From a virus (taxonomy: Duplodnaviria; Caudoviricetes): a DNA stretch of 64,000 nucleotides. The notes below the pieces were generated by a model. It saw only the letters and a program-made list of their open reading frames with translations, had not been told where the DNA came from and ran no database searches. The stretch's first letter is position 1. Each line of letters begins with the position of its first letter. The DNA is taken from positions 31,607 through 95,606 of the IMG/VR virus record IMGVR_UViG_3300021431_000095, one strand, 5' to 3'. The translations under genes and the position numbers were made by a program. This document shows positions 7,882 through 39,738 of this stretch, piece by piece.

Positions 7882-8340
7882 TTGGAAGACAAGATTTTCA
7901 ACAGCAGCTACAATAACGTAGAGTATGGCACAGACAGGACATCACAGCAGGAAATATCTATAAACCCTGCAGTAGCGGACAACTACGAGGAGAATGTGTC
8001 AGAGAACATAGAGGATGTGTATGTCAAGAAGAACATGATGGACCAGATGGAACAGTTCTATGAGGAATCAGAGTTTTTCGAGAAATACGGAAGGGAACCG
8101 AAAAGGATAGACAGGGGAGACTTCTTCAAGATATACTATTATTTTAAGGACAAGTTTAAGGAACTCGGACATTACAATGCGGTTCAGATATTCTGCACGA
8201 TAGCGGAATTCTTCGAGTTGAACTACAAACTGCTATACAGAGACATCATAACTTTGGAGGATAAAGTTGAGATACTTGACATCCTTGAAGAGCAATACGG
8301 GCTTGATAAACCACTACAGAATTCAAAAAGACTGTTTTAA
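7882..8340 (+). CDS. hypothetical protein
   Basis: 152-aa ORF between helicase and nuclease in the same operon. Confidence 0.7.
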   Translation: MEDKIFNSSYNNVEYGTDRTSQQEISINPAVADNYEENVSENIEDVYVKKNMMDQMEQFYEESEFFEKYGREPKRIDRGDFFKIYYYFKDKFKELGHYNAVQIFCTIAEFFELNYKLLYRDIITLEDKVEILDILEEQYGLDKPLQNSKRLF

Positions 8341-21500: not shown

Positions 21501-22262
21501 GTTCTTTTAAGTCTAAATAAAAAAATGGAAAAGGGTGCAATTCTTGTAATCGAAAAATATCAACAAACCGTTCTTAGTACAGAGGAAGAAATGAAGAAAG
21601 GAATTTCTTTGTTGTTTACAGAATACAAGGACAAGAAGCATCTTGAAGATTCTAGATTTAACTCTGCTATTGCTGCGGGTCAAACAAATAATCAACAAAC
21701 AAATCAAACAAATAATAATCAAGTTGTGAACCAACAAACATCTCAGACAAACAACAATACAGACGCTTCCACAAACACAGATGCCTCGACCAACAACACA
21801 ACGGACGCTTCGACTAACGGAGGAAAGAACACCACGTTCAAGGCTGACGGGAACGGAAACTTCACCGATTCTGTCAATGTGAAGTACGACTCGGCAAAAT
21901 CAATCAAGGAAGGTCTCTACACCACAGTCACCGTCAGAAGATCCTACAGTGAGTATATGCCAAAATGGTATGTTGTTTCGGAATCTGTATACGATGACGG
22001 TTGCGGCAAATCGACTATGCTTGATTCTCCATCTGTCAGAAGGAAGATGAACACCAGATCCGACGTGATGAACTTCGTGAAGTCGCACGACAATACAAAG
22101 ATTATGCAGTTCGAGTCAAAGCACACCTACAGTATATCGAACGACAAGGGTTATGTTCCTTCGGTTGCTACGCCTCTCTATGAGTCGGTAATGTTCGTGA
22201 AGTTTGACAATGACGACAATATAATCGAGAAAATCTACGCAGGAAACACAAAGGTACAGTAA
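18555..22262 (+). CDS. large putative internal head/ejection protein
   Basis: 1235 aa in the head cluster; repeated [VIL]-x-E motifs; two N-proximal hydrophobic helices. Confidence 0.55.
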   Translation: MSNSNKVNEDNWTGFHFNGMTNGINEAPVPYDANVPVDVNILHGTGAPGGYVWGRPGNTSVSFDINLFSNNSKSTVIDKTVSGAASGGGAAANGLAWFGTHFKEIAIVAAGSAILLALIKLIKKANREIKIRYNKVVKTLQKAQQDFTLNPNGLDSTAVMKGQGSKIADAFARLFTLNIFDKERREATRTTNIGLYPFCDRYKEEITKDFKCAIEAFNKIKVASESEKENGGVADSENESANVKVYNSFHEAFAMDPIFEGEKVNESVLAAISAGVGLASLAVRGGQFVMSKLSNKGRSVEGSEKIVQVTKESTREICYSIIYQYLDKYVNMDRVFKELGISSESLADLDASSCDKLKNFLEKYQKPEKNQYSKQYFRVKTAYDNMLKHYYNIGDGIIKNFEKFTEAKDEKHANLLVSAKEKLQNMWDAQKDMFNSNFSHVLIEIVSSDVYIAYLNFILEKVMPVFKTGLAGDADYVLDIMPQKNQYYLVRQTQEQPWLGDGEANNGNVAIAKVESFDRSKQEIKVKIIGLLNGNYEVSSNGIVTLDKDATVDYNAYKNDDGAKKEVILKYGKWLSLDPLLMDWKENIESNVYGRMVPKEKPEYGEYIYAYGSKENNAESGREEYNRIVFASYDAKKYEYRKTVLIKLKNPLTEEEFRSLCEQTSDESDKNMDFDNYGNSSESSWVMGIINRINSLEKEEVEANSTEDIVKIVNEIGESIKIKAATSLYKRTTKNSRGRDIDEYVFAEVSGDLESMYTESGAQRLNDRVNEAEDSSASVVKPGDKGADKNLIARIFCVNVSAGKPLTGDRKENQFSGSIIKIDPACSVDDLNAEMQKFDPKFEIVENNADTLRKDIIDGILENKGSREVTLSGTYEIGKINDAVSAIENRENTAEQIDNEIGNIANNILSDLGKLNVKENDYGQRKFQFRGGKGYVGDKEHVFLGIKENTPNISNDIKKYGCFSVNTGIKYYNEDITIDVYPVLLSLNKKMEKGAILVIEKYQQTVLSTEEEMKKGISLLFTEYKDKKHLEDSRFNSAIAAGQTNNQQTNQTNNNQVVNQQTSQTNNNTDASTNTDASTNNTTDASTNGGKNTTFKADGNGNFTDSVNVKYDSAKSIKEGLYTTVTVRRSYSEYMPKWYVVSESVYDDGCGKSTMLDSPSVRRKMNTRSDVMNFVKSHDNTKIMQFESKHTYSISNDKGYVPSVATPLYESVMFVKFDNDDNIIEKIYAGNTKVQ

Positions 22263-23071
22263 TGGACAACAAACAGATTCAGAATATAGGGGAAAGCATA
22301 CTAGAGAAATACCAGTATGCTGACTCCGTCAGAAGGAAGGGTGGAATTCTTCCGAAGGAATTCCTTTCGGAACTCGTCGACTTGACAGAGGCTTTCTGCA
22401 TCCTCTCTTGTGAATCTGGTGACACCGATCTTTCAGAGGAGGCTGAATCGTACAGCAGGATAACCGAGAGCATCGTCACTGAGTCGACATACCACAAGCT
22501 TTATGAATCGGGTTTCACTAATCCTTTCGACGACGATCTTTCCACCGAAGGGATGAATGCCGCAGCAATGGAATACGACACGGATCCTGAGGAGAAGGAC
22601 GACGAACTCAGGATAAGGAGGGTGAGGATGTGGAATTCCGATACAAAGAACAAAATAATGTTCGTCAACGGCAAGATGATAGCAGGGCAGCATTTCGACA
22701 AAGGGGACATAATCGAAAGGTGTCCATGTCAACTCATCAGTGCAAAAAGTCTATATTCGGAAGAAGTAAGAAAGTTTGCTTTTACTATAGACTATGCAAG
22801 ACGGATATATGCCATACCATTCGGTTACGGAACATGCTACAGAAATTCTCAAGAATATGGTGTTGATGGAAACGCTGCATACTATTTCGATTCTTCAAAT
22901 CCTCAGTTTCCGTGCATCGTAATAGTTGCAACAAAGAGAATAAAGAAGGGGCACGAGATAGTCTTACTCTCTACCGACGAGGATTTCGAGAACGAGATAA
23001 AACCAGGTCAGTTCGAGTACGATCAGGGGGTTGAACCCTATTATGCAATCAAGTCGGCCAGAATTGCTTAA
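22262..23071 (+). CDS. divergent SET-domain-like protein
   Basis: AGQHFDKGDIIERCP, FGYGTCYRNS, VATKRIKKGHEIVL match the SET pattern, but NHS and the terminal Tyr are altered. Confidence 0.65.
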   Translation: MDNKQIQNIGESILEKYQYADSVRRKGGILPKEFLSELVDLTEAFCILSCESGDTDLSEEAESYSRITESIVTESTYHKLYESGFTNPFDDDLSTEGMNAAAMEYDTDPEEKDDELRIRRVRMWNSDTKNKIMFVNGKMIAGQHFDKGDIIERCPCQLISAKSLYSEEVRKFAFTIDYARRIYAIPFGYGTCYRNSQEYGVDGNAAYYFDSSNPQFPCIVIVATKRIKKGHEIVLLSTDEDFENEIKPGQFEYDQGVEPYYAIKSARIA

Positions 23072-27996: not shown

Positions 27997-29562
27997 ATGG
28001 CATACAGACCACCAGAGAAATGGACATATGAGTCCTGTTACGAAGAAGCAAAGAAGTACACAACTCGCTCGGAATTTAAGAAAGGATGTGAGTGTGCATA
28101 TGACAAATCCAGAAAGATGAACTGGATTGATGACTACACATGGCTCGCCGCCCCATCCAACAAGAAGTATACATACGACGAAGTCAAACTGATAGCCGAA
28201 CAATACGACTCTCTCGCAGAGTTTACCAAGAACAGTGTCGGAGCTTATCAAGCAGCCCTAAAGAATGGATGGCTCGATTCATTCACACATCTCAAACGTC
28301 GCAACAAGGATTTGACTGCAGAAGACATTATAGAACGGGCAAAACAATTCTCTTCTTATAAGGAATTCATTAATTCAAACGAGAGTCTATACAACGCTTT
28401 CCTGAAATTCTACAACTCTGGAAAGATTTCTGACAACGATCTCCCTTGGGAAGTCACTAAACGCAAATCCGAATGGACACACGAGGATTGCTACAACGAA
28501 GCAAAGAAATACGACTCCTCATGGCATTTCAAACTTGGAAACGAAAGCGCGTACAACAGGGCAAGGATTGAAGGGTGGCTCGACGAGTACACTTGGTTCA
28601 GAAATCCAAAGGCATATACGTTCGAGGAATGCGAGGAACTCGCCAAGGATTTCGATGCACCATATGCTTTCGCCAAAGCGCACCCGGGAGCATACGGTGC
28701 TGCGAAGAACAACGGATGGCTCGACAAACTTGATTTTCCCAACAGAGTTCATGAGTGGACAAAGGAGGAAGTGATTGAAAGATGTTCCAAATATGGAACG
28801 AAGAGAGACACTCTCGAAAACGACAAACGGGCATATTACGCATTCTGCAGGTTCAGGGACAAGGGAATCCTTTCAGACGAGGATATGAACTGGCAACCAG
28901 CGGAACGCACACGAGGCGACGAGTCGGATCCAATCCATTCCGTCTATGTATACGACTTCGGCGACAACACAGCCTATGTCGGCAGGACTATGAATCCCAA
29001 GAAACGCGACTCACAACACAGGAGACCGCATCATGCACATGGCAGAAGCGATCCGGACTCTGTACTTCAGCATTCTATTGACACAGGGCTTCCTATACCA
29101 GAGATGGTCATCCTTGAGGAGGGACTCGACATGCAGGAAAGCCGCCGTCAGGAGGACAGTTGGTACAATGCCTACAAGGATCTCGGCTATACAATGCTCA
29201 ACAAGGGAGCCACAGGCGAGTATGTCGGATCGGTTGGTGGATTTTCTGTGAAATGGACAAGGGAAAGGGTGACAGAGTTCGCCAAGAAATTCAACACCGT
29301 CAACGACATGCTCAACGAGGACGAGAGTGCGTACAGGGCTATGATGAGGTACAAACTTGCTGACGAGCTGTTCCCGAACAGGAGGTTCACCCACAAGTGG
29401 AGTTTCGACGAGGTCAAGGAAGCTGCTTCCAAGTATCCGACGAGGACAAGGTTCCAGAAACTTGACCAGAACATGTACTACATAGCCCGCAAGAATGGTT
29501 GGCTCGACATCCTGTTCCCGAAGAAAGAAAAACCACAGGAAAACCAAACACAGTTATTCTAA
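27997..29562 (+). CDS. free-standing GIY-YIG homing endonuclease with helical repeats
   Basis: VYVY...AYVGRT..PKKRDSQH and LNK motifs; 6 N-terminal and 2 C-terminal ~47-aa repeats. Confidence 0.82.
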   Translation: MAYRPPEKWTYESCYEEAKKYTTRSEFKKGCECAYDKSRKMNWIDDYTWLAAPSNKKYTYDEVKLIAEQYDSLAEFTKNSVGAYQAALKNGWLDSFTHLKRRNKDLTAEDIIERAKQFSSYKEFINSNESLYNAFLKFYNSGKISDNDLPWEVTKRKSEWTHEDCYNEAKKYDSSWHFKLGNESAYNRARIEGWLDEYTWFRNPKAYTFEECEELAKDFDAPYAFAKAHPGAYGAAKNNGWLDKLDFPNRVHEWTKEEVIERCSKYGTKRDTLENDKRAYYAFCRFRDKGILSDEDMNWQPAERTRGDESDPIHSVYVYDFGDNTAYVGRTMNPKKRDSQHRRPHHAHGRSDPDSVLQHSIDTGLPIPEMVILEEGLDMQESRRQEDSWYNAYKDLGYTMLNKGATGEYVGSVGGFSVKWTRERVTEFAKKFNTVNDMLNEDESAYRAMMRYKLADELFPNRRFTHKWSFDEVKEAASKYPTRTRFQKLDQNMYYIARKNGWLDILFPKKEKPQENQTQLF

Positions 29563-29581: not shown

Positions 29582-29977
29582 ATGAAACAAATAGACAAGG
29601 ACAAATATTCGGTCGAAGAGTACAGGAAAGGGAGCGAGAAGCGATACAGGATAGTCGACTCCAAGAGAAAAGTCTTCGACGACGCTCAGGGATACGGCTA
29701 CAAGTCGAGTCAGAACGCTATGAAAGCCCTGTACTACAAGATAAACAAGGGAGAGATAGAGTCTCGGAACGCTGAGTTCAGGAAAATTCTGGACAGGATA
29801 AAGCCGCAGCTCAAGGAATTCGAATGGATTCTGGAGGATGTGTCGTATCTCAAGGACGGGGACTACAAGTACGACATATTCGAGGAGTTCTGGAACGCTG
29901 TGATTGAGAAATATCCTGAACTTTCCGAATACAGGACAAAGTCTTTCACAAACTATCTCAAAAACAACATCTGGTAA
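29582..29977 (+). CDS. hypothetical protein
   Basis: ATG at 29582 downstream of the HEG stop. Confidence 0.65.
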   Translation: MKQIDKDKYSVEEYRKGSEKRYRIVDSKRKVFDDAQGYGYKSSQNAMKALYYKINKGEIESRNAEFRKILDRIKPQLKEFEWILEDVSYLKDGDYKYDIFEEFWNAVIEKYPELSEYRTKSFTNYLKNNIW

Positions 29978-29978
29978 C

Positions 29979-30920
29979 ATGCTCAAATCCGAAGACTTTT
30001 TCAAGACATACATGCCGTGTACCTTGAAGTACAACGTGTTCCCCAAACTATCATATCTTCTGGAGAGCCACGGTCACTCGGACGCTGTCCTCTCAAGCGC
30101 GGAGTATGTCGCCGACATGTTCCTGCAGGACTTCGATAAAAGGAAACCCTCGTTCGCACAGCACAAGGAACAACCCTACATCGTCGAGATTCAGGGAAGG
30201 AAAGATGACTTCTTCAACAAAGTTGTCATCCACGCCAAGTATTTCGGCATGGAGGACGGATACGCCCCTGTGATGTGCTTCCTGAAGGAAAGCGGTTTCC
30301 ACGACGGGGAATACACAGTCGAGATAGCAGTAGCCATGTCGTGTGATCCATCGCTGTTCAAACCGCATGTTTTCTCGTGCTTCGGTCACGAGCTGGCTCA
30401 CGGGTACGACGAGTACATGGAGTTGAAATCGACGGGAGGGAGGCACTCGAAGTTCAGGGACTTCGAGAAAAACGAGAGGAACCAAGAATTACAGAACAGG
30501 ATTATGGACAGTCCAGACAAGAATGTCAGGGATTTCGGGCTTTTACTTCATTTCATAGACGAGACGGAGACGCAGAGCTACCAGCATGAGGTGTGTGCCG
30601 AGATTAAGGACACGTTCAATGGAAACGAGGATCTGACGACGTTCAAAACGTGCAACGACATAATGATGGGGACTGGTGTCATGAAAGTCGTGAAGGAAAA
30701 CGAGAAGTTCCTTTCGAGGATGAAGGACGGGAGCCTTGACATGTACAGGGAGATATTCCTGCAGCTGTTCGGGTATGTGTATTTCACGAGGGGGAATTTC
30801 TCGTATGAGGACATGGTGGTTTTCATAGGCAGAAGGTTCATCAAGGTCAGGAAAAAGATTGTGGAGGCGGCAGGCGGGATGTTCGTGATGAAGTATACCG
30901 ACAGGATGAGATGGAGATGA
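29979..30920 (+). CDS. putative zincin-like (HExxH) protein
   Basis: HELAHG plus downstream Glu (DETETQS); ATG at 29979. Confidence 0.55.
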   Translation: MLKSEDFFKTYMPCTLKYNVFPKLSYLLESHGHSDAVLSSAEYVADMFLQDFDKRKPSFAQHKEQPYIVEIQGRKDDFFNKVVIHAKYFGMEDGYAPVMCFLKESGFHDGEYTVEIAVAMSCDPSLFKPHVFSCFGHELAHGYDEYMELKSTGGRHSKFRDFEKNERNQELQNRIMDSPDKNVRDFGLLLHFIDETETQSYQHEVCAEIKDTFNGNEDLTTFKTCNDIMMGTGVMKVVKENEKFLSRMKDGSLDMYREIFLQLFGYVYFTRGNFSYEDMVVFIGRRFIKVRKKIVEAAGGMFVMKYTDRMRWR

Positions 30921-32040: not shown

Positions 32041-32295
32041 ATGAGGAGATACATAGACGAATATCTTGAGACCCCTGATCGTGAATGGCTTTCCCCGAAC
32101 TTTTCTGAGATAAAGGAGAAAGTGCTTGAGATGCACAGGGACGGAGCAGGTGTCGACACGATTGTTAAACACCTTCAGGACTGGATGTATATTTTTAACG
32201 ACGAGGAAGAGGAGAACTGGGAGAGGGAGGTTGTGGAAAACATAATCGTGGGGAAACCTGTAGTCAACAGGTGGACAAAGGTTGAGTTTGAGTAA
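32041..32295 (+). CDS. hypothetical protein
   Basis: 84-aa ORF abutting both neighbours. Confidence 0.6.
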   Translation: MRRYIDEYLETPDREWLSPNFSEIKEKVLEMHRDGAGVDTIVKHLQDWMYIFNDEEEENWEREVVENIIVGKPVVNRWTKVEFE

Positions 32296-33092
32296 TGAAT
32301 ATAGAGATTGACAACATATATAACATGGACTGTGTCGACGGGTTATCCTGCATGGAGAAGGAATCCGTCGATTTGACTGTGACATCGCCTCCATACGACA
32401 ACATAAGATCGTATAACGGAAACATAGATCAATGGAGCTTTGAAAAGTTCAAGAAAATAGCAGACGAACTCTACAGGGTGACTAAGGACGACGGGGTTGT
32501 CGTATGGATTGTGTCCGATGGGACAGAGAACGGATCTGAGAGCCTGACGAGTTTCAAACAGGCTATCTACTTCAGGGAAATAGGTTTTTCTTTGTACGAC
32601 ACGATGATATGGGAGAAGCCGAGTCCTGCGGTTCCTACGGAGGGAAGGTATTACGACGTATTCGAGTACATGTTCGTGTTCTGCAAGGGAAACAAGCCGA
32701 AGAGCATGAACCTGATATGCGACAGACTGAACTCGTCAGCAGGAAGTGTGGCGAGGAAGGAGACGAGGAGTGCAAGGGAAGACAGGAAATACAAAGGTGA
32801 AAAAAGAGTTGTAGCAGACATGTCGAGAAGATTCAATGTATGGAATATAGGGAGAGGGAAGAATTTGAGTTCGCATCCTGCTGTGTTTCCATACGAATTG
32901 GCGAGGGATCACATAAGGAGTTGGAGCGAAGAAGGCGATATTGTTCTGGATCCGTTCATGGGGAGTGGAACGACGGCTCTGGCTGCAAAGAACAACGGGA
33001 GGCACTTCGTCGGATTCGAGATAGACAAGTCGTATTTTGAGGAAAGCGAAAGCGTTGTCGAAGCTGCCAAAAAACAAACAAGACTTTTTTGA
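32295..33092 (+). CDS. N4-cytosine/N6-adenine DNA methyltransferase (beta class)
   Basis: TSPPY precedes HPAVFP and DPFMGSGTT. Confidence 0.92.
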   Translation: MNIEIDNIYNMDCVDGLSCMEKESVDLTVTSPPYDNIRSYNGNIDQWSFEKFKKIADELYRVTKDDGVVVWIVSDGTENGSESLTSFKQAIYFREIGFSLYDTMIWEKPSPAVPTEGRYYDVFEYMFVFCKGNKPKSMNLICDRLNSSAGSVARKETRSAREDRKYKGEKRVVADMSRRFNVWNIGRGKNLSSHPAVFPYELARDHIRSWSEEGDIVLDPFMGSGTTALAAKNNGRHFVGFEIDKSYFEESESVVEAAKKQTRLF

Positions 33093-33946
33093 TGAAGACA
33101 CCATTGAGATATCCAGGAGGAAAAAGCAGAGTAGCCGAATATCTTGTTTCGCTGTTTCCTGAGTACAGGGATTACAGGGAACCTTTTCTTGGCGGCGGGA
33201 GTGTGTTTCTTGAGGCTATAGAAAAGAGACCGGATGTTCTGTACACTGTAAACGATCTTTATTATGATCTATACTGTTTTTGGAAATCGATGATTGACAG
33301 CCCGAAGTCGACTGTGGCTGAAGTGAAGAGGATAAAGGATATGTACACTGACGGAAAGGTTCTGTACAGCAAGACGATGTCTGACATATCGGCAGACAGG
33401 GAATTCGGAAAGACGATAGACGTTGCTGCGGAATTCTTCGTTCTGAACAGGATAACGTTCTCAGGAACATCGTTGAGCGGTGGATATTCCGACGAGTCGT
33501 TCAGGAAACGGTTCACTGAGTCGTCTGTTGAAAGACTTGGGGAGATGGGAAAGTTCCTTGAAGGGAAAGGGAATGTTTCTGTGTGCAACTTAGACTTCTC
33601 TGTGATTCTCGGCATGGAAGTGTATGATCCAAACCTGACGTTCGCATTCTTGGATCCGCCTTACTACAGTGCGGAGGATTCTGCCCTGTACGGAAGAAAC
33701 GGGGACAAACACAAGGGGTTCGATCATGAGAGATTGAAGAAATGCTTGGATAATTGCAATTACAAATGGTTGATGACATATGATGATTGCGGGTATATCA
33801 GGAATTTGTATAAAGATTATAACGTGAGGGAATTTGAATTCTCATACGGGATGAGGAACGCTGGTGGCGGAAACGACATGAAGGGTAAGGAGCTGCTGAT
33901 AAGCAACTATGACATAAGCGAAAGGAAAAGTGTGGAATTGTTTTAA
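33089..33946 (+). CDS. Dam-like DNA adenine methyltransferase (alpha class)
   Basis: LRYPGGKS, EPFLGGGSV, DPPY. Confidence 0.92.
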   Translation: MMKTPLRYPGGKSRVAEYLVSLFPEYRDYREPFLGGGSVFLEAIEKRPDVLYTVNDLYYDLYCFWKSMIDSPKSTVAEVKRIKDMYTDGKVLYSKTMSDISADREFGKTIDVAAEFFVLNRITFSGTSLSGGYSDESFRKRFTESSVERLGEMGKFLEGKGNVSVCNLDFSVILGMEVYDPNLTFAFLDPPYYSAEDSALYGRNGDKHKGFDHERLKKCLDNCNYKWLMTYDDCGYIRNLYKDYNVREFEFSYGMRNAGGGNDMKGKELLISNYDISERKSVELF

Positions 33947-34237: not shown

Positions 34238-36733
34238 ATGGCTTTAATGAAATTGAAATGCCTTGATGGGAAGGAAATCGATCCAGAGACCTGTCCGATA
34301 GAGGAACTTGAGAGTATAAAGGATGCCTGCAAGAGGGAGGAGGACTACTGGAACACCATGCAGCTGAGTGCTAAGACTTTCATTAACAGTGTGTACGGTG
34401 TGTTTGGTACGAGTTACTTCAATCTGGCGAATATCGACATTGCTGAAAGCATCACTTTGCAGGGTCAGGACTTGATCAAGTACAGCGTTATAAAGGTGGA
34501 CGACTACTTCAAGAACATGTGGCATTTGGATTACGAAGGTCACAAGAGGGTGTCTGACATCATGATAAACGAGTATGGATTCAAGGATTTCGACAGGGAG
34601 AATTTCGAGAGGATGGCAAGGACACCTCTTCAGTTCAATACTCTTCAAATATACGGCGACTCAGTTGCAGGCGACAGCCGAATTCTGCTGAAATACGGAG
34701 ACAACTATTTTACAAAGGAGATTCAGGAACTGTTCAATGAGTTCTGTGACAGCGACAGTGGCGACAAGATCCGCGTCAAAGTAGGTAGCAAGTATCTGGT
34801 CGGTACTTATGATCCTGAAACAGACAAACCGATATACAGAGGAATCGACTATGTCATGCGCCATAAGACGAATAAACGCAGATTCCGTATATGTCTTGAT
34901 GGAGGAAACAGTGTTGTTGTCACAGAGGATCATTCCATCATGGTGCTCAAAGACGATAATCTTGTCGAGGCTGCCGTCAAGGATCTGCATATAGGCGATA
35001 AACTTATTGTCTATGCAAACAGAGAAAGTGTTGTCCAAAAAGACATACATTCCATTATATATGTTGGGTGTGACGATGAATATGTGTACGATCTGTGTGT
35101 ATTTGCAGATAAAGATATCCAGCATACATTTTTTGCTGACAATATACTTGTTCACAATACCGACAGTGTGTCTGGCGACACCGTTGTTGTGACTAAGAAT
35201 CACCCGAATGGTATATCGATAGAGCGACTGTATGGAGAGAATGCAGAGTATGCAGTTGAATTCGGAGACAATCACGAGTCGGTGCTGACAGGGGATATGG
35301 TTTTAAATTACTATGACAACGAATTGTATGTCGCTCCCGTGTCAAGAATAATCCGACACAAAGTCACAAAGGATAAGTATTTGTTAAAAGCGTTCAACTC
35401 AGGAAACGCGGTCGAATGCACATCAGATCATTCGCTTGTCGTATACAGACAGAATGGAGACGAGGGCAAATATGTTTCTGCTGTAGTGAAACCGTATGAA
35501 ATCAGGAATGGGGATCTTGTCGTCACATGCAAGAACGATTCATATACATTCGAGGAAGCAACCTGTGAGAAGATCGGGGAATATAATGATGAATATGTAT
35601 ACGACATAGAGATGGACGACTTGACTTCCACATTTGTGGCAAACGGAATACTGGTTCACAACTCCGCATACCTGACAATGGAGCCTCTGTTGAACTTGTA
35701 CGGTATACCAGACGATCAGATGGTCAAGTTCTGTCTCGCTGTCTACAAGGCTGTCATGGAGAAGTACCTTGACGACAAATTCGACGAGTACGCCGCACAT
35801 TTCCACTGCAAGGAGAACCTTGAGAAGTTCGAGTTGGAAAAGGTATCGCGTGCAGTCATCATGCTCGCCAAGAAGAACTATATGTGCGATGTTGCATGGA
35901 TTGACTCGGGTGTGTTTTTCGAGCAGGGACACCACATCACATACACAGGCTACGATGTCGTGAAGGGAGCAACAACAAACTTCTGCAGGGAGGAGATGAA
36001 GAATTTCACCAACTTCTGCTTCCAGAAAATACATGAGGGAAGAATCCCGACACAGGGAGAATGTGTGCAGCTTCTCAGGGGAATGAAGCAGAGGTTCGCC
36101 ATGCAATCACCTAACGAGATTGGAAAGACTGTCAGTATATCGGAATATGAGAAGTTCGTGAAAGCCGACAACAAGCCACAGATTGAATATTTCAACTATT
36201 CATCGGCCACAGTGATGGAGGCTTCCCCATCGTCCGACAAAATTGTGTTCGCTTCTGTCCCTGGAAACTGGAAGAAGGACGACATTGTCTCGTTCTACAC
36301 TAACGTCGGTGGGCAGGTCAGCAAAATAAGCACATTGAAGATAGCGGCTATACATGGCAACACAGTGACGTTCTCTTCTCTGTACGCGAACATACCTAAC
36401 GGTTGCGAGGCTATCAACGAGAACAGGAAGACACCTGTGCCCATACATGTGAGGGCTGCAGCGGTGTACAACAACACCATACTTGTGAAGAACAGGAAAT
36501 ACCTGAGTAAGTACGAGCTTCTGAAGTCCGGAGACAAGATCAGGTTCTACTACACAAGCGAGGACGAGGTGTTCGGGTTCATCCCCGACAACTTCCCCTA
36601 TGAGTTCGCGCCTCCTGTGGATGTGGACGTACAGTTTGACAAGAGCCTACTGTCTCCGATAAATAGGATTATTGTGGCACTCGGACTGAACGAGGTTCCG
36701 CCGAGCCTTACATATTCGGTCGGATTGTTCTAA
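34238..36733 (+). CDS. family B DNA polymerase, C-terminal subunit (gp43B-like), with two inteins
   Basis: Motif B KTFINSVYG, motif C YGD/TD/S interrupted twice, KKNY, PIHVRAA; no exonuclease domain or motif A. Confidence 0.92.
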   Translation: MALMKLKCLDGKEIDPETCPIEELESIKDACKREEDYWNTMQLSAKTFINSVYGVFGTSYFNLANIDIAESITLQGQDLIKYSVIKVDDYFKNMWHLDYEGHKRVSDIMINEYGFKDFDRENFERMARTPLQFNTLQIYGDSVAGDSRILLKYGDNYFTKEIQELFNEFCDSDSGDKIRVKVGSKYLVGTYDPETDKPIYRGIDYVMRHKTNKRRFRICLDGGNSVVVTEDHSIMVLKDDNLVEAAVKDLHIGDKLIVYANRESVVQKDIHSIIYVGCDDEYVYDLCVFADKDIQHTFFADNILVHNTDSVSGDTVVVTKNHPNGISIERLYGENAEYAVEFGDNHESVLTGDMVLNYYDNELYVAPVSRIIRHKVTKDKYLLKAFNSGNAVECTSDHSLVVYRQNGDEGKYVSAVVKPYEIRNGDLVVTCKNDSYTFEEATCEKIGEYNDEYVYDIEMDDLTSTFVANGILVHNSAYLTMEPLLNLYGIPDDQMVKFCLAVYKAVMEKYLDDKFDEYAAHFHCKENLEKFELEKVSRAVIMLAKKNYMCDVAWIDSGVFFEQGHHITYTGYDVVKGATTNFCREEMKNFTNFCFQKIHEGRIPTQGECVQLLRGMKQRFAMQSPNEIGKTVSISEYEKFVKADNKPQIEYFNYSSATVMEASPSSDKIVFASVPGNWKKDDIVSFYTNVGGQVSKISTLKIAAIHGNTVTFSSLYANIPNGCEAINENRKTPVPIHVRAAAVYNNTILVKNRKYLSKYELLKSGDKIRFYYTSEDEVFGFIPDNFPYEFAPPVDVDVQFDKSLLSPINRIIVALGLNEVPPSLTYSVGLF
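34661..35158 (+). mobile_element. mini-intein 1 (166 aa) at YGD|TDS
   Basis: Starts SVAGDS, block B TEDH, block F VYDL, ends VHN followed by Thr. Confidence 0.92.
35165..35662 (+). mobile_element. mini-intein 2 (166 aa) at YGDTD|S
   Basis: Starts SVSGDT, block B TSDH, block F VYDI, ends VHN followed by Ser. Confidence 0.92.
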
Positions 36734-38017: not shown

Positions 38018-39271
38018 ATGAGATTGGTCTATAAATTCAACAACTATCAAAACAACGAAGAGTTATTCAGGTTGTGCAGGATCTCCAAGGATCTGTATAA
38101 CCAGGCTCTTTATATCATAAAGACCAATCTCAAAAATGAGAACAGATTCACATTCTATAATGAACTTGACAAAATATTGAAAGAAACACCAAACGCAGAA
38201 GGAGAGATAAACTACAGAAAGCTGAAGGCTCAGGTTTCACAACAGTGTCTTAAAGTTCTTGACAAAAGCGTAAAGGGATATGTGAAATCCATAAAGGACT
38301 GGTCGAAACACAAGGAGAAATACAAAGGTATGCCGAAACTTCCGTCATACAAGAAGAAAGACGGGTACAACCAGTTGATTTATCCAAATCAGAGTTCTTC
38401 TATAAAAGACGGGAAGATATTTTTCTCAAGGGAACTTTCTATATCGATTCCACAATGGGATGAATACAAAGACAAACTGAAAGATTTCCAGCAGATAAGG
38501 GTCAATCCAAAGAGCGGATACACAGAGATTGAAATTGTTTACAACTACCAAACGTACAATGAATCTGTGGATCAGAAAAGATTTGCGTCTATAGATCTCG
38601 GACTAGGTAATCTTGTCACGATGGTAACTGATTTCTCCGAACCGATAATTTATTCAGGAAGGCAGATTAAGTCAAAGAACCAGTTCTTCAACAAAAGAAT
38701 TTCTTTATTGAAAAGCATAGCAGAAACAAACAACAATAAACATACGACAAAACAAATAAAAAATCTATGGGATAAGAGAGACAAGCAGATGAACGACGTT
38801 TTCCACAAAGTCAGCAGGCATATCGTGAACACACTCGTCCAGAACAAGGTTGGGAACCTTATTATCGGTCATAACAATGGATGGAAAGACTCCATCGACA
38901 TTGGTAAGGTAAACAACCAGAATTTCGTGATGGTTCCGTTTGACAAACTGATATCGTATCTCAAATACAAATGCGAGATGGCTGGTATAATTGTTGTTGA
39001 ACACGAGGAGTCATATACGAGCAAATGTGACGCTCTGTGTCTTGAGAAAGTCTGCAAACATGATGTATACAAAGGGAAGCGTGTAAAGAGGGGACTGTTC
39101 CAGAGTTCAGTGGAAAAACTGGTAAACGCAGACGTAAACGGTGCCCTTAACATAATGAGAAAAGTAGTCGGTGATTCCTACGTAAGCAGGATAATCGATA
39201 GCGGTCGGTTGTTCCGACCTGTAAAGTTTAACAATCTTTATTTGTTGGGGATTGTTAAGGTTTATGAATAA
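38018..39271 (+). mobile_element. tnpB: TnpB-family RNA-guided endonuclease, no adjacent transposase
   Basis: N-terminal LYNQALY; RuvC IDLG, EESYTSK, NADVNGALNI; hairpins at the 3' end. Confidence 0.88.
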
Positions 39272-39300: not shown

Positions 39301-39738
39301 ATGCAGTTCTTCACTTCTTATTACGGAAACTACAAGAACATCCCGAAGGACTACGTCTGTATAGGGATATCAAGATACTGTCCAGAATGGTTCAAGAAAG
39401 GGAACTACGACAATTTCGTATTTGTCGAGGATAATATTCTTGCTCCAGACAAGGATCTTCTCGACGACATGAAGTCTGGAAGGGAAACCGAGGAAGGATA
39501 TAAAAGGAGATATGTAGAGGGACTGTTTAAGAAACTCGGGAACATCACGTTCAATGACTATATTGAATCATTTTCCGATTCATACAAAGACTACAAAGCA
39601 ATAGTGTTCCTGTGTTATGAGAAGCCAGAGGACTTCTGTCACAGACACATTCTGAGAAAACTTATGAACAATGTATTCAATATTCCGTGTGAGGAATTGG
39701 AAACTGAAAAGAAGCAAAAAGAAATAGCATTATTTTAA
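39301..39738 (+). CDS. DUF488-family protein
   Basis: TSYY, ISR, LAP, LCYEKPEDFCHRH. Confidence 0.8.
   Translation: MQFFTSYYGNYKNIPKDYVCIGISRYCPEWFKKGNYDNFVFVEDNILAPDKDLLDDMKSGRETEEGYKRRYVEGLFKKLGNITFNDYIESFSDSYKDYKAIVFLCYEKPEDFCHRHILRKLMNNVFNIPCEELETEKKQKEIALF

Follow-up and report, generated by a model that had tools for sequence, protein, structure and literature searches.

Two inteins interrupt motif C of a split family B DNA polymerase

The window analysed here, a 64,000-nucleotide stretch of DNA from a huge uncultured phage, encodes half of a family B DNA polymerase in which two inteins interrupt catalytic motif C, two residues apart. The inserts are very likely two independent, selfish class 1 mini-inteins that occupy neighbouring sites, both of which must splice to rebuild the active site. 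Each insert is of a known kind and lies at a known site. No description of simultaneous occupancy of YGD/T and DTD/S (slashes mark insertion points) was found in the literature searched, a body of work outside which most subscription journals fall.

The polymerase gene (34238..36733, plus strand) encodes an 831-residue precursor that matches the Pfam DNA_pol_B profile from position 145 onward only. It is the C-terminal half gene of a split polymerase, which the sequence-only reading of this DNA had not mentioned. No exonuclease domain was found in the 95.6-kb source record, which is about 21% complete; near-complete relatives encode the exonuclease half in a gene of its own (470-510 aa), 18-180 kb away.

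Translation and coordinate arithmetic gave the order YGD / intein 1 / TD / intein 2 / SAY. The N-extein (residues 1-141; 34238..34660, plus strand) ends in the YGD of motif C (codons at 34652-34660), matches DNA_pol_B profile positions 143-228 (E = 1.7e-9), includes an NSVYG stretch that is invariant across the homologue alignment, and is colinear with homologues that lack inteins. Intein 1 (34661..35158, plus strand; SVAGDS...ILVHN) lies at YGD/TDS and intein 2 (35165..35662, plus strand; SVSGDT...ILVHN) at DTD/S, 6 bp downstream. Each is 498 nt, or 166 aa, in length. Between them is an internal extein of two residues, Thr-Asp (35159..35164, plus strand). Its Thr takes the +1 nucleophile position of intein 1, and its Asp, at position -1 of intein 2, is also the second Asp in the catalytic motif DTD, a residue that coordinates catalytic metal in family B polymerases. 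The TD dipeptide was retained at this position in all 17 double alleles found. Both inteins are contiguous within one 831-codon frame, and the arrangement is not that of a fractured gene with split inteins. These results bear out the sequence-only reading, which had described back-to-back mini-inteins of this size two residues apart in YGDTDS, each with Ser1, TxxH and a terminal HN, endonuclease-free and diverged from one another, and had placed the second Asp of motif C in the internal extein. The end coordinate given in that reading, 35665, belongs to the +1 Ser codon.

The C-extein (35663..36730, plus strand; 356 aa), delimited by alignment to the intein-free homologue P0108, comprises the rest of the palm and the thumb and begins with the Ser of YGDTDS. 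Its first residue aligns to residue 144 of P0108, directly behind the YGDTD of that protein, and the two are 66% identical overall and 82% identical when one 71-aa insertion is set aside. Against DNA_pol_B, the C-extein covered profile positions 249-353 at 15.1 bits, below the 23-bit cut-off, whereas the flank preceding the inserts (profile positions 143-228) scored above it. Removal of both inserts in silico gave a predicted polymerase half of 499 aa that is 84.6% identical to P0108 and, as had been anticipated, colinear with homologues that lack inteins and have an uninterrupted YGDTDSAY.

Each insert has the sequence and predicted fold of an intein

Each insert was scanned alone against the Pfam Intein_splicing profile (PF14890; cut-off 35.8 bits), and both exceeded the cut-off, with 44.6 bits for intein 1 (E = 1.7e-11) and 47.2 bits for intein 2 (E = 2.7e-12). 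A profile scan detected no homing-endonuclease domain in either insert. The residue set of class 1 inteins (a nucleophile at position 1, TxxH, HN, and Ser, Thr or Cys at +1) is present in both. Intein 1 carries Ser1, RH at 67-68 (NX-type His68), T88xxH91, VYD, H155, H165-N166 and a +1 Thr; intein 2 carries Ser1, R64-H65, T86xxH89, EYVYD, H165-N166 and a +1 Ser. The inserts lie in frame within a conserved motif, and colinear insert-free homologues were found in 105 clusters, which read YGDTDS(A/S)Y.

An AlphaFold2 model of the inserts (mean pLDDT 87.4) contained two all-beta domains, and the pTM of 0.55 leaves their placement relative to one another uncertain. The top Foldseek matches were inteins (9HTH, E = 9.5e-12, TM 0.83-0.84; 7OEC, TM 0.88), as were, together with Hint-type domains, all of the best 50 of 63 matches at E <= 0.001. 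The intein 7oec matched model residues 12-160, which is most of intein 1, and 9hth covered part of intein 1 (residues 46-179), while the structure of the Pho RadA intein matched intein 2 (residues 194-348). The model thus indicates that each insert folds as its own Hint domain.

The residues required for splicing were conserved among related inteins. Ser1, TxxH, the R/K-His motif, block F and HN were retained in 29-30 of 30 site-1 inteins and 44-45 of 45 site-2 inteins, and overall identity among the surveyed inteins was only 30-55%. Retention of these residues at such low identity indicates selection for splicing, and on this basis both inserts presumably excise autocatalytically and ligate their exteins.

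One departure from the consensus was found in intein 2, which has Ser in place of the block F His. In its sub-clade (P0001, P0004, P0005 and P0006), TSTF stands instead of xHTF, and the His is present in 40 of 45 relatives. The substitution might slow the C-terminal step of splicing. It could even be read as a sign that one of the inteins, most likely intein 2, is splice-dead and that the gene is dead or heading for loss. We consider this very improbable. Its persistence in four sequences that have diverged from one another argues that it is tolerated, and their intein 2 copies, 64-85% identical, have intact junction and block B residues. The reading frame is open through all 831 codons. The block F His is also not universal among inteins. 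The relative P0004, from the Logan assemblies, has the same 831-aa layout and is 97% identical to the window in the extein, 96% in intein 1 and 85% in intein 2; an extein conserved to this degree gives no sign of decay.

Proposed route to an active polymerase

We propose that the precursor is translated as a single chain in which each Hint domain would fold alone and excise in cis. Splicing of intein 1 would join Asp to Thr, splicing of intein 2 would join Asp to Ser, and the catalytic YGDTDS strand would exist only once both reactions were complete; that both are needed to restore the motif, as the earlier reading held, follows logically from the layout. With Ser at position 1, both inteins would use oxyester chemistry and need no cysteine at 1 or +1. 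Intein 1 would encounter a native TDS sequence, because Ser1 of intein 2 occupies the position of the extein Ser, and intein 2 would likewise be preceded by its native TD. The -1 and +1 residues are unchanged whichever intein leaves first, and therefore the junctions would impose no order of splicing; the fixed order that had been raised as a possibility is not supported. The recurrence of the layout suggests that neither active site hinders the other despite a spacing of only two residues.

Occupancy of the two sites varies among close relatives

Among 157 related polymerase clusters, 105 were empty at both sites, 6 carried an intein at site 1 only, 29 at site 2 only, and 17 at both, and 8 further clusters had intein 1 and, of intein 2, just the N-terminal piece; classing was based on motifs, and 120 of the 309 proteins, being fragments or having diverged motifs, were left unclassed. 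A survey for alleles with no, one or two inteins, which had been proposed as a check, thereby recovered all three kinds. The double-allele relatives come from assemblies other than IMG/VR and are represented by protein sequences only. At 80 IMG/VR loci, two matches were long enough to accommodate one intein, L006 (site 1 only, on the same contig as L002) and L007 (site 2 only), and L034 was a fractured form; loci other than L034 were judged by match length only. One relative, P0309, carried a full-size intein with a LAGLIDADG domain at site 1.

Differences in occupancy were found between nearly identical exteins. P0016 (site 2) and P0019 (both sites) are 99.8% identical in their exteins, P0122 (empty) and P0013 (site 1) 99.3%, P0118 (empty) and P0009 (both) 97.9%, and P0025 (site 2) and P0035 (both) 97.2%. 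On the extein tree, occupancy changed at least 21 times at site 1 and at least 23 times at site 2, with at least 11 separate label changes involving double occupancy. These comparisons of sequences indicate that both elements come and go within the phage population.

This variability bears on the proposal that the pair acts as an adaptive post-translational AND gate, in which two conditional splicing events, perhaps in a fixed order, would time or license replication. Both inserts lie within the catalytic motif, and hence activity would wait for both reactions; conditional protein splicing is also known for some other inteins. However, relatives with exteins 97-99.8% identical lack one or both inteins, and occupancy that varies in this manner is that of dispensable selfish elements rather than of a conserved control device. 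Since neither intein has a cysteine at 1 or +1, the splicing chemistry offers no redox-sensitive nucleophile, and no order is imposed by the junction residues. We therefore regard a regulatory role as quite unlikely; the gate holds in the trivial sense only that both inteins have to leave.

The sequence-only reading had also predicted that insertion at one site would disrupt the homing target of the other. This is plausible for endonuclease recognition, but the survey argues against strong exclusion, because double occupancy accounts for at least 11 changes on the tree and intein 1 is commoner together with intein 2 than alone. Intein 1 occurred with intein 2 in 17 clusters and alone in 6 (odds ratio 10.3, Fisher p = 2e-6, uncorrected for phylogeny). 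A phylogeny-aware test of co-occurrence was not significant (median p = 0.065), and independent pairs on the tree favoured co-occurrence by 8.3 to 1.7.

Among related phages, the two inteins fall into separate site-specific families

Intein 1 and intein 2 of the window share 30% identity (BLASTP, E = 1e-12), and in all 16 double alleles compared, the two inteins of the same protein were 31-40% identical. Of the 48 site-2 inteins in the intein tree, 47, including intein 2 of the window, formed a single clade (SH-aLRT 98), and the site label changed 3 times compared with 24.6 times when labels were shuffled. One intein grouped oddly, that of P0242, which was classed as site 1 yet lies inside the site-2 clade. 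These results indicated two site-specific intein families, where the kinship of intein 1 was compared within phages and the site grouping of intein 2 holds within the huge-phage clade.

At long range the families blur. Among GenBank phage inteins, intein 1 is closest to the one at site 1 of Salicola phage SCTP-2 (36% identity, E = 9e-26), which also matches intein 2 (E = 3e-12). The N-terminal intein piece of L034 is closer to intein 2 (43% identity) than to intein 1 (29%), and Lak-A1 gave mixed results. The N-piece of Aes517 scored slightly higher against intein 1 (49 bits) than against intein 2 (38 bits), and so showed no closer kinship to the intein at its own site.

The two inteins are equal in length (166 aa) and have similar ends (SVxGD... 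and ...ILVHN), as would be expected had one intein been duplicated in tandem or had two alleles been joined in a chimeric assembly. Such an origin is exceedingly improbable, since the inteins are only 30-34% identical, each groups with inteins from its own site in other phages, and alleles with only one of the two occur for either site. Independently assembled sequences, P0004 among them, show the layout in at least 16 other clusters.

Spread of the inteins

Both elements probably spread by recombination during co-infections, and spread of the site-2 family was probably aided by the free-standing VSR-type endonuclease gene of its split relatives. In L034 and Lak-A1, the order is intein-N piece, free-standing ORF, intein-C piece, and the ORF product shares 34% identity with the Aes517 protein annotated as a VSR endonuclease (E = 4e-37); in Lak-A2, the two intein pieces have no endonuclease ORF between them. 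No VSR-type endonuclease gene was found in the 95.6-kb record, approximately one-fifth of the genome.

An extension of this explanation, rather than a replacement for it, is that the two inteins move as a composite mobile unit. Intein 1 lacks an endonuclease and lies 6 bp from site 2, and would therefore be carried along by co-conversion with a homing site-2 element, so that an empty allele became double in one step. Splicing between the two outermost junctions would remove the catalytic TD, and this would keep the inteins orthogonal to each other. Consistent with a one-step gain, the nearest extein neighbours of several double alleles are empty (P0118 for P0009, P0190 for P0042, P0139 for P0038, P0203 for P0043, and both P0108 and P0111 for P0001, P0004, P0005 and P0006), and intein 1 occurs mostly with intein 2, as described above. 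Identity between the inteins of one protein never exceeded 40%, and published site-2 split inteins are mutually orthogonal (PMC10189870, PMC12707363). In opposition to this, the co-occurrence test that accounts for phylogeny fell short of significance, and identities of intein 1 and of intein 2 among double alleles were uncorrelated (rho = 0.02); intein 1 followed the extein (rho = 0.50) and intein 2 did not (rho = -0.01), which argues that the pair does not always travel together. P0016 and P0019, and likewise P0025 and P0035, differ by intein 1 alone, with intein 2 copies 91-97% identical. On balance, a composite unit of this kind appears less likely than not. Similarly tentative is the stronger view that the inteins are co-adapted and orthogonal to each other, operate with only two residues between their active sites, and spread as one element; selection against a lethal outer splice, with loss of the catalytic Asp, would then keep the two families diverged.

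Comparison with known inteins

The insertion point of intein 1, as the sequence-only reading had recognised, is a known one: YGD/TDS is the published pol-c site of PolB inteins, which is occupied in archaeal PolB (position III), in the Mimivirus PolB and in the split Pol of Nanoarchaeum equitans (PMC549080). Intein 1 shares the insertion point and the +1 Thr with these inteins, but the adjoining DTD/S site, empty in the pol-c systems, is filled in the window. Salicola phage SCTP-2, like the window, has a mini-intein at site 1.

Site 2 is also a known and experimentally tested intein site, which the sequence-only reading had not noted. Split inteins of the Aes123 PolB1 type, from T4-like Aeromonas phages, lie at the same DTD/S site as intein 2; that of Aes517 has Ser1 and a +1 Ser (junctions YIDTD/SVVGDT... 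and ...LVHN/SVYLNME), and the host gene of Aes517 is likewise a phage family B polymerase split into gene halves. An intein of the Aes123 PolB1 type, 9HTH, was the best structural match of the window model. The Aes123/Aes517 PolB1, CP21 PolB1 and LCGC14 PolB2 inteins are trans-split, their halves flanking a VSR-type endonuclease gene (PMC11923092, PMC12707363), and stand alone in the motif, whereas intein 2 is contiguous and endonuclease-free and follows another intein at a distance of two residues. Dassa et al. 2009 (PMC2677866) described fractured genes, in which a free-standing gene for a VSR-like endonuclease accompanies split inteins. This layout is found at site 2 in L034 and Lak-A1; the window copy is unfractured, with no endonuclease gene nearby.

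PolB16 OarG, from a sheep gut metagenome (PDB 8CPN/8CPO), shares site 2 with intein 2, has the N-extein SGDTD, Ser1 and Ser+1, and trans-splices in vitro (PMC10189870). The R/K-His 'NX' motif given there is present in both window inteins (RH at 67-68 and 64-65). PolB16 is split after 15 residues and was described as a single intein, and the available part of its report (PMC10189870) mentions no YGD/T neighbour. The relatives P0120 and P0137 start inside the N-terminal part of intein 2, which resembles the atypical PolB16 split as described there.

Neighbouring inteins are known from other proteins. [quoted passage not shown] As in the window, the insertion sites cluster in one catalytic region, and single and double alleles coexist in the population. 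The window differs in that its sites are 6 bp apart and both filled, and in that the inteins tend to co-occur.

Implications

Inteins are usually flanked by real host protein, whereas here each neighbours the other, separated by the dipeptide that holds the catalytic Asp. Recurrence of this layout in many independent phage lineages, with every splicing residue retained, suggests that two Hint domains can function back to back, and bears on how much extein context an intein needs. It bears as well on whether neighbouring mobile elements help or hinder one another, where MCM is a case of interference and the present survey hints at co-occurrence, and on where inteins that are orthogonal and independent of cysteine might be found for ligating proteins from three pieces, a search that recent work has pursued one intein at a time (PMC12707363). 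If the inteins were a co-adapted pair, these alleles would form a natural library of orthogonal Ser-intein pairs without Cys at 1 or +1, proven in tandem, and a natural test case of neighbouring inteins that favour, rather than hinder, one another. For annotation, the layout is a warning that polymerase genes of huge phages may consist of two or three genes plus two inteins.

Two further features of the locus were noted. Minus-strand ORFs at 34661-35275 and 35540-36106 overlap the inteins; they match no PHROG family and were taken as chance. The thumb region contains a lineage-specific insertion of about 71 aa (approximate limits 36209..36421, plus strand), seen as a 71-residue gap in the alignment to P0108. 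It is not an intein, as it is without splice-junction residues. Judging from protein lengths and full-coverage matches, the same insertion is probably present in P0004, P0106 and P0107.

Two inteins interrupt the catalytic motif of the polymerase

The sequence-only reading described two back-to-back mini-inteins within the polymerase motif YGDTDS, and translation and coordinate arithmetic located every sequence detail that it listed. Within the polymerase ORF (34238-36733, + strand, 831 residues by translation), YGD (34652-34660) is followed by intein 1 (34661-35158; 166 aa, SVAGDS...ILVHN), a Thr-Asp dipeptide (35159-35164), intein 2 (35165-35662; 166 aa, SVSGDT...ILVHN) and SAY (from 35663), all on the + strand. 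The sequence shows the catalytic strand YGDTDS interrupted twice, with the Thr between the inteins as the +1 nucleophile of intein 1 and the Asp as the -1 residue of intein 2. In family B polymerases, this Asp is an active-site metal ligand. The double-intein layout is real and unusual, and was reproduced in other assemblies.

When each insert was scanned singly, the Pfam Intein_splicing profile (cut-off 35.8 bits) matched both intein 1 (44.6 bits) and intein 2 (47.2 bits), and no endonuclease domain was matched in either, as had been proposed. The two inteins share 30% identity (BLASTP, E 1e-12). Sequence matches to inteins in the PDB included 9HTH and 7OEC for the first half and the Pho RadA intein for the second. 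An AlphaFold2 model of residues 129-486, based on an alignment of 40 relatives, predicted two separate all-beta domains (mean pLDDT 87.4), and the top Foldseek matches of the model were inteins (9HTH, E 9.5e-12; 7OEC, TM 0.88). With a pTM of only 0.55, the modeled placement of the two domains against each other is tentative.

The interrupted gene and its relatives

The flanks of the inserts matched DNA_pol_B only from profile position 143-145 onward, and no exonuclease domain was found across the 95.6-kb IMG/VR record (~21% complete by CheckV). In four near-complete relatives (genomes G001-G004; loci L090-L093), the exonuclease half is a gene of its own that encodes 470-510 aa and lies 18-180 kb away. 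Since the domain match is partial and relatives carry a separate exonuclease gene, the window gene encodes the C-terminal half of a polymerase that this huge phage makes from two genes. In the C-terminal halves read from G001-G004, no intein was seen at the gene boundary, so the two polymerase halves presumably associate without covalent joining. Genes in the neighborhood, for a capsid protein of the gp23 type, a prohead protease and a tail sheath protein, fit a large myovirus-like phage. The closest named polymerase relatives were those of the Lak megaphages (~31% identity).

In silico removal of both inserts gave a product colinear with the intein-free homologue P0108 (84.6% identity). The first residue of the C-extein aligned to residue 144 of P0108, which directly follows the YGDTD of that protein, and the sole gap in this alignment was a 71-aa lineage-specific insertion farther downstream. 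This thumb insertion (approximately 36209-36421) is absent from P0108 and most relatives, and looks like a small beta-rich domain without intein features.

Occupancy and mobility of the two sites

Three protein searches yielded several hundred relatives, of which 157 clusters with complete exteins were counted. All allele states were present: YGDTDS was uninterrupted in 105 clusters, 6 carried only the YGD|T intein, 29 only the DTD|S intein, and 17 had both sites filled. The distant relative P0309 carries a 397-aa pol-c-site intein with a LAGLIDADG domain, a full-size form of the site-1 element in this polymerase family.

Intein 1 occurred with intein 2 in 17 clusters and alone in 6 (odds ratio 10.3), and a phylogeny-aware test gave a median p of 0.065; co-occurrence after allowing for phylogeny is therefore only suggestive. 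Of the 48 site-2 inteins in a 79-intein tree, 47 formed one clade (SH-aLRT 98), and the site label required 3 changes, compared to 24.6 when shuffled. Inteins 1 and 2 of the same double allele shared 31-40% identity. Given this grouping by site and the low identity within alleles, origin of the pair by intein duplication was ruled out.

Occupancy states were scattered over the extein tree, and the double state required no fewer than 11 changes, even when only well-supported branches were counted. Near-identical exteins (97-99.8%) differed in state: P0016 (site 2) and P0019 (both), P0118 (empty) and P0009 (both), P0122 (empty) and P0013 (site 1), and P0134 (empty), P0025 (site 2) and P0035 (both). 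In the double alleles, the identity of intein 1 tracked that of the extein (rho 0.50), whereas the identity of intein 2 did not (rho -0.01), which points to greater mobility of the site-2 element. The proposal that the pair acts as an AND gate on replication was not supported, since empty, single and double alleles occur among such closely matching exteins. The distribution of these sequences instead lends good support to the two inteins being selfish elements; they may, with lower probability, also form a composite, co-mobilized and mutually orthogonal pair.

Intein 2 is often naturally split in relatives, as indicated by its end-pieces in N- and C-terminal proteins. In 8 further clusters, intein 1 is followed by a protein end ~116-119 residues into intein 2, and at least 12 inspected proteins, drawn from 37 that showed the site-2 C-junction only, consist of Met plus 44-50 residues of the C-terminal part of intein 2, then the C-extein. 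The relative L034 is a full "fractured gene", in which the N-piece and C-piece of intein 2 flank a 382-aa free-standing ORF. The same order is found, unannotated, in the published genome of the Prevotella phage Lak-A1 (MK250016.1), and that of Lak-A2 (MK250019.1) has both pieces, likewise unannotated, without the intervening ORF; in both phages the split intein sits at the polymerase DTD|S site. The free-standing ORF is of the VSR endonuclease type; it shares 34% identity (E 4e-37) with the enzyme annotated as such in Aeromonas phage Aes517, where the gene sits between the intein halves.

Predicted splicing and comparison with known inteins

Ser1, the R/K-His motif, TxxH, the block F core and the terminal His-Asn were conserved in 29-30 of 30 site-1 and 44-45 of 45 site-2 inteins, at an overall identity of just 30-55%, a pattern that points to selection for splicing. 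The block F His, present in 40 of 45 site-2 inteins, is replaced by Ser (residue 155) only in intein 2 of the window and of its three closest relatives, P0004, P0005 and P0006. As this Ser is kept across diverged sequences, it is taken as tolerated, and it may point to a variant chemistry of C-terminal cleavage.

Polymerase activity would require both predicted cis-splicing reactions. Ser1 of intein 2 would give intein 1 the TDS context of the empty allele, and TD would precede intein 2 with or without intein 1. Each intein would thus have its native junction context either way, so the junction residues would impose no order, and the fixed splicing order suggested earlier is not borne out. Were the two outer junctions to react with each other, TD would be lost and the polymerase inactivated, which may be why paired inteins are always of different families.

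Each component belongs to a familiar type and occupies an established insertion site. Intein 1 is at YGD|TDS, known as pol-c, where archaeal PolB, Mimivirus and the Nanoarchaeum split intein have their insertion (PMC549080). Intein 2 lies at DTD|S, which two experimentally tested split inteins also occupy: the Aes123-type PolB1, read from the Aes517 junctions, and the sheep gut metagenome intein PolB16 OarG, which has the native N-extein SGDTD and trans-splices in vitro (PMC10189870). Novikova et al. described four PolB intein sites, and two DnaB sites two residues apart, with simultaneous occupancy reported for another pair only (PMC4760082). Neighboring MCM inteins of Haloferax interfere with each other (PMC10643990). 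Jumbo gut phages were reported to have endonuclease-split polymerase genes and 26 intein-domain proteins, and the double-site layout was not analyzed there (PMC12880540). No published account of both motif C sites filled simultaneously was found, and this arrangement is new as far as the literature was searched.

Other features of the genome

Six + strand ORFs of the window end in Leu-Phe before the stop (7882-8340, 27997-29562, 32295-33092, 33089-33946, 34238-36733 and 39301-39738); they encode the polymerase half, two DNA methyltransferases, a GIY-YIG-like protein and two unknowns. The polymerase halves of relatives likewise end in SLF or SLW. We would guess that these ends are a common C-terminal docking tail, e.g. 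a clamp-binding peptide.

The polymerase gene is followed, after 1.3 kb, by a gene of the TnpB/OrfB_IS605 type (38018-39271) whose product has a Cas12f-like TNB domain, and a phage ORF at 22262-23071 had a weak SET-domain match (E 4.3e-5). Paralogous ORFs with a HELxH-like motif, without a Pfam or PHROG family match, were located at 29904-30920, L089:5976-6953 and L002:1270-2232, and both the window and the relative L002 have one copy a few kb upstream of the gene for the polymerase half. Outside the window, the same genome carries a third intein, with Cys1, a LAGLIDADG motif and Cys at +1, in a 1081-aa anaerobic ribonucleotide reductase-like gene (G000:C1:26709-29954; L089:2710-5955).
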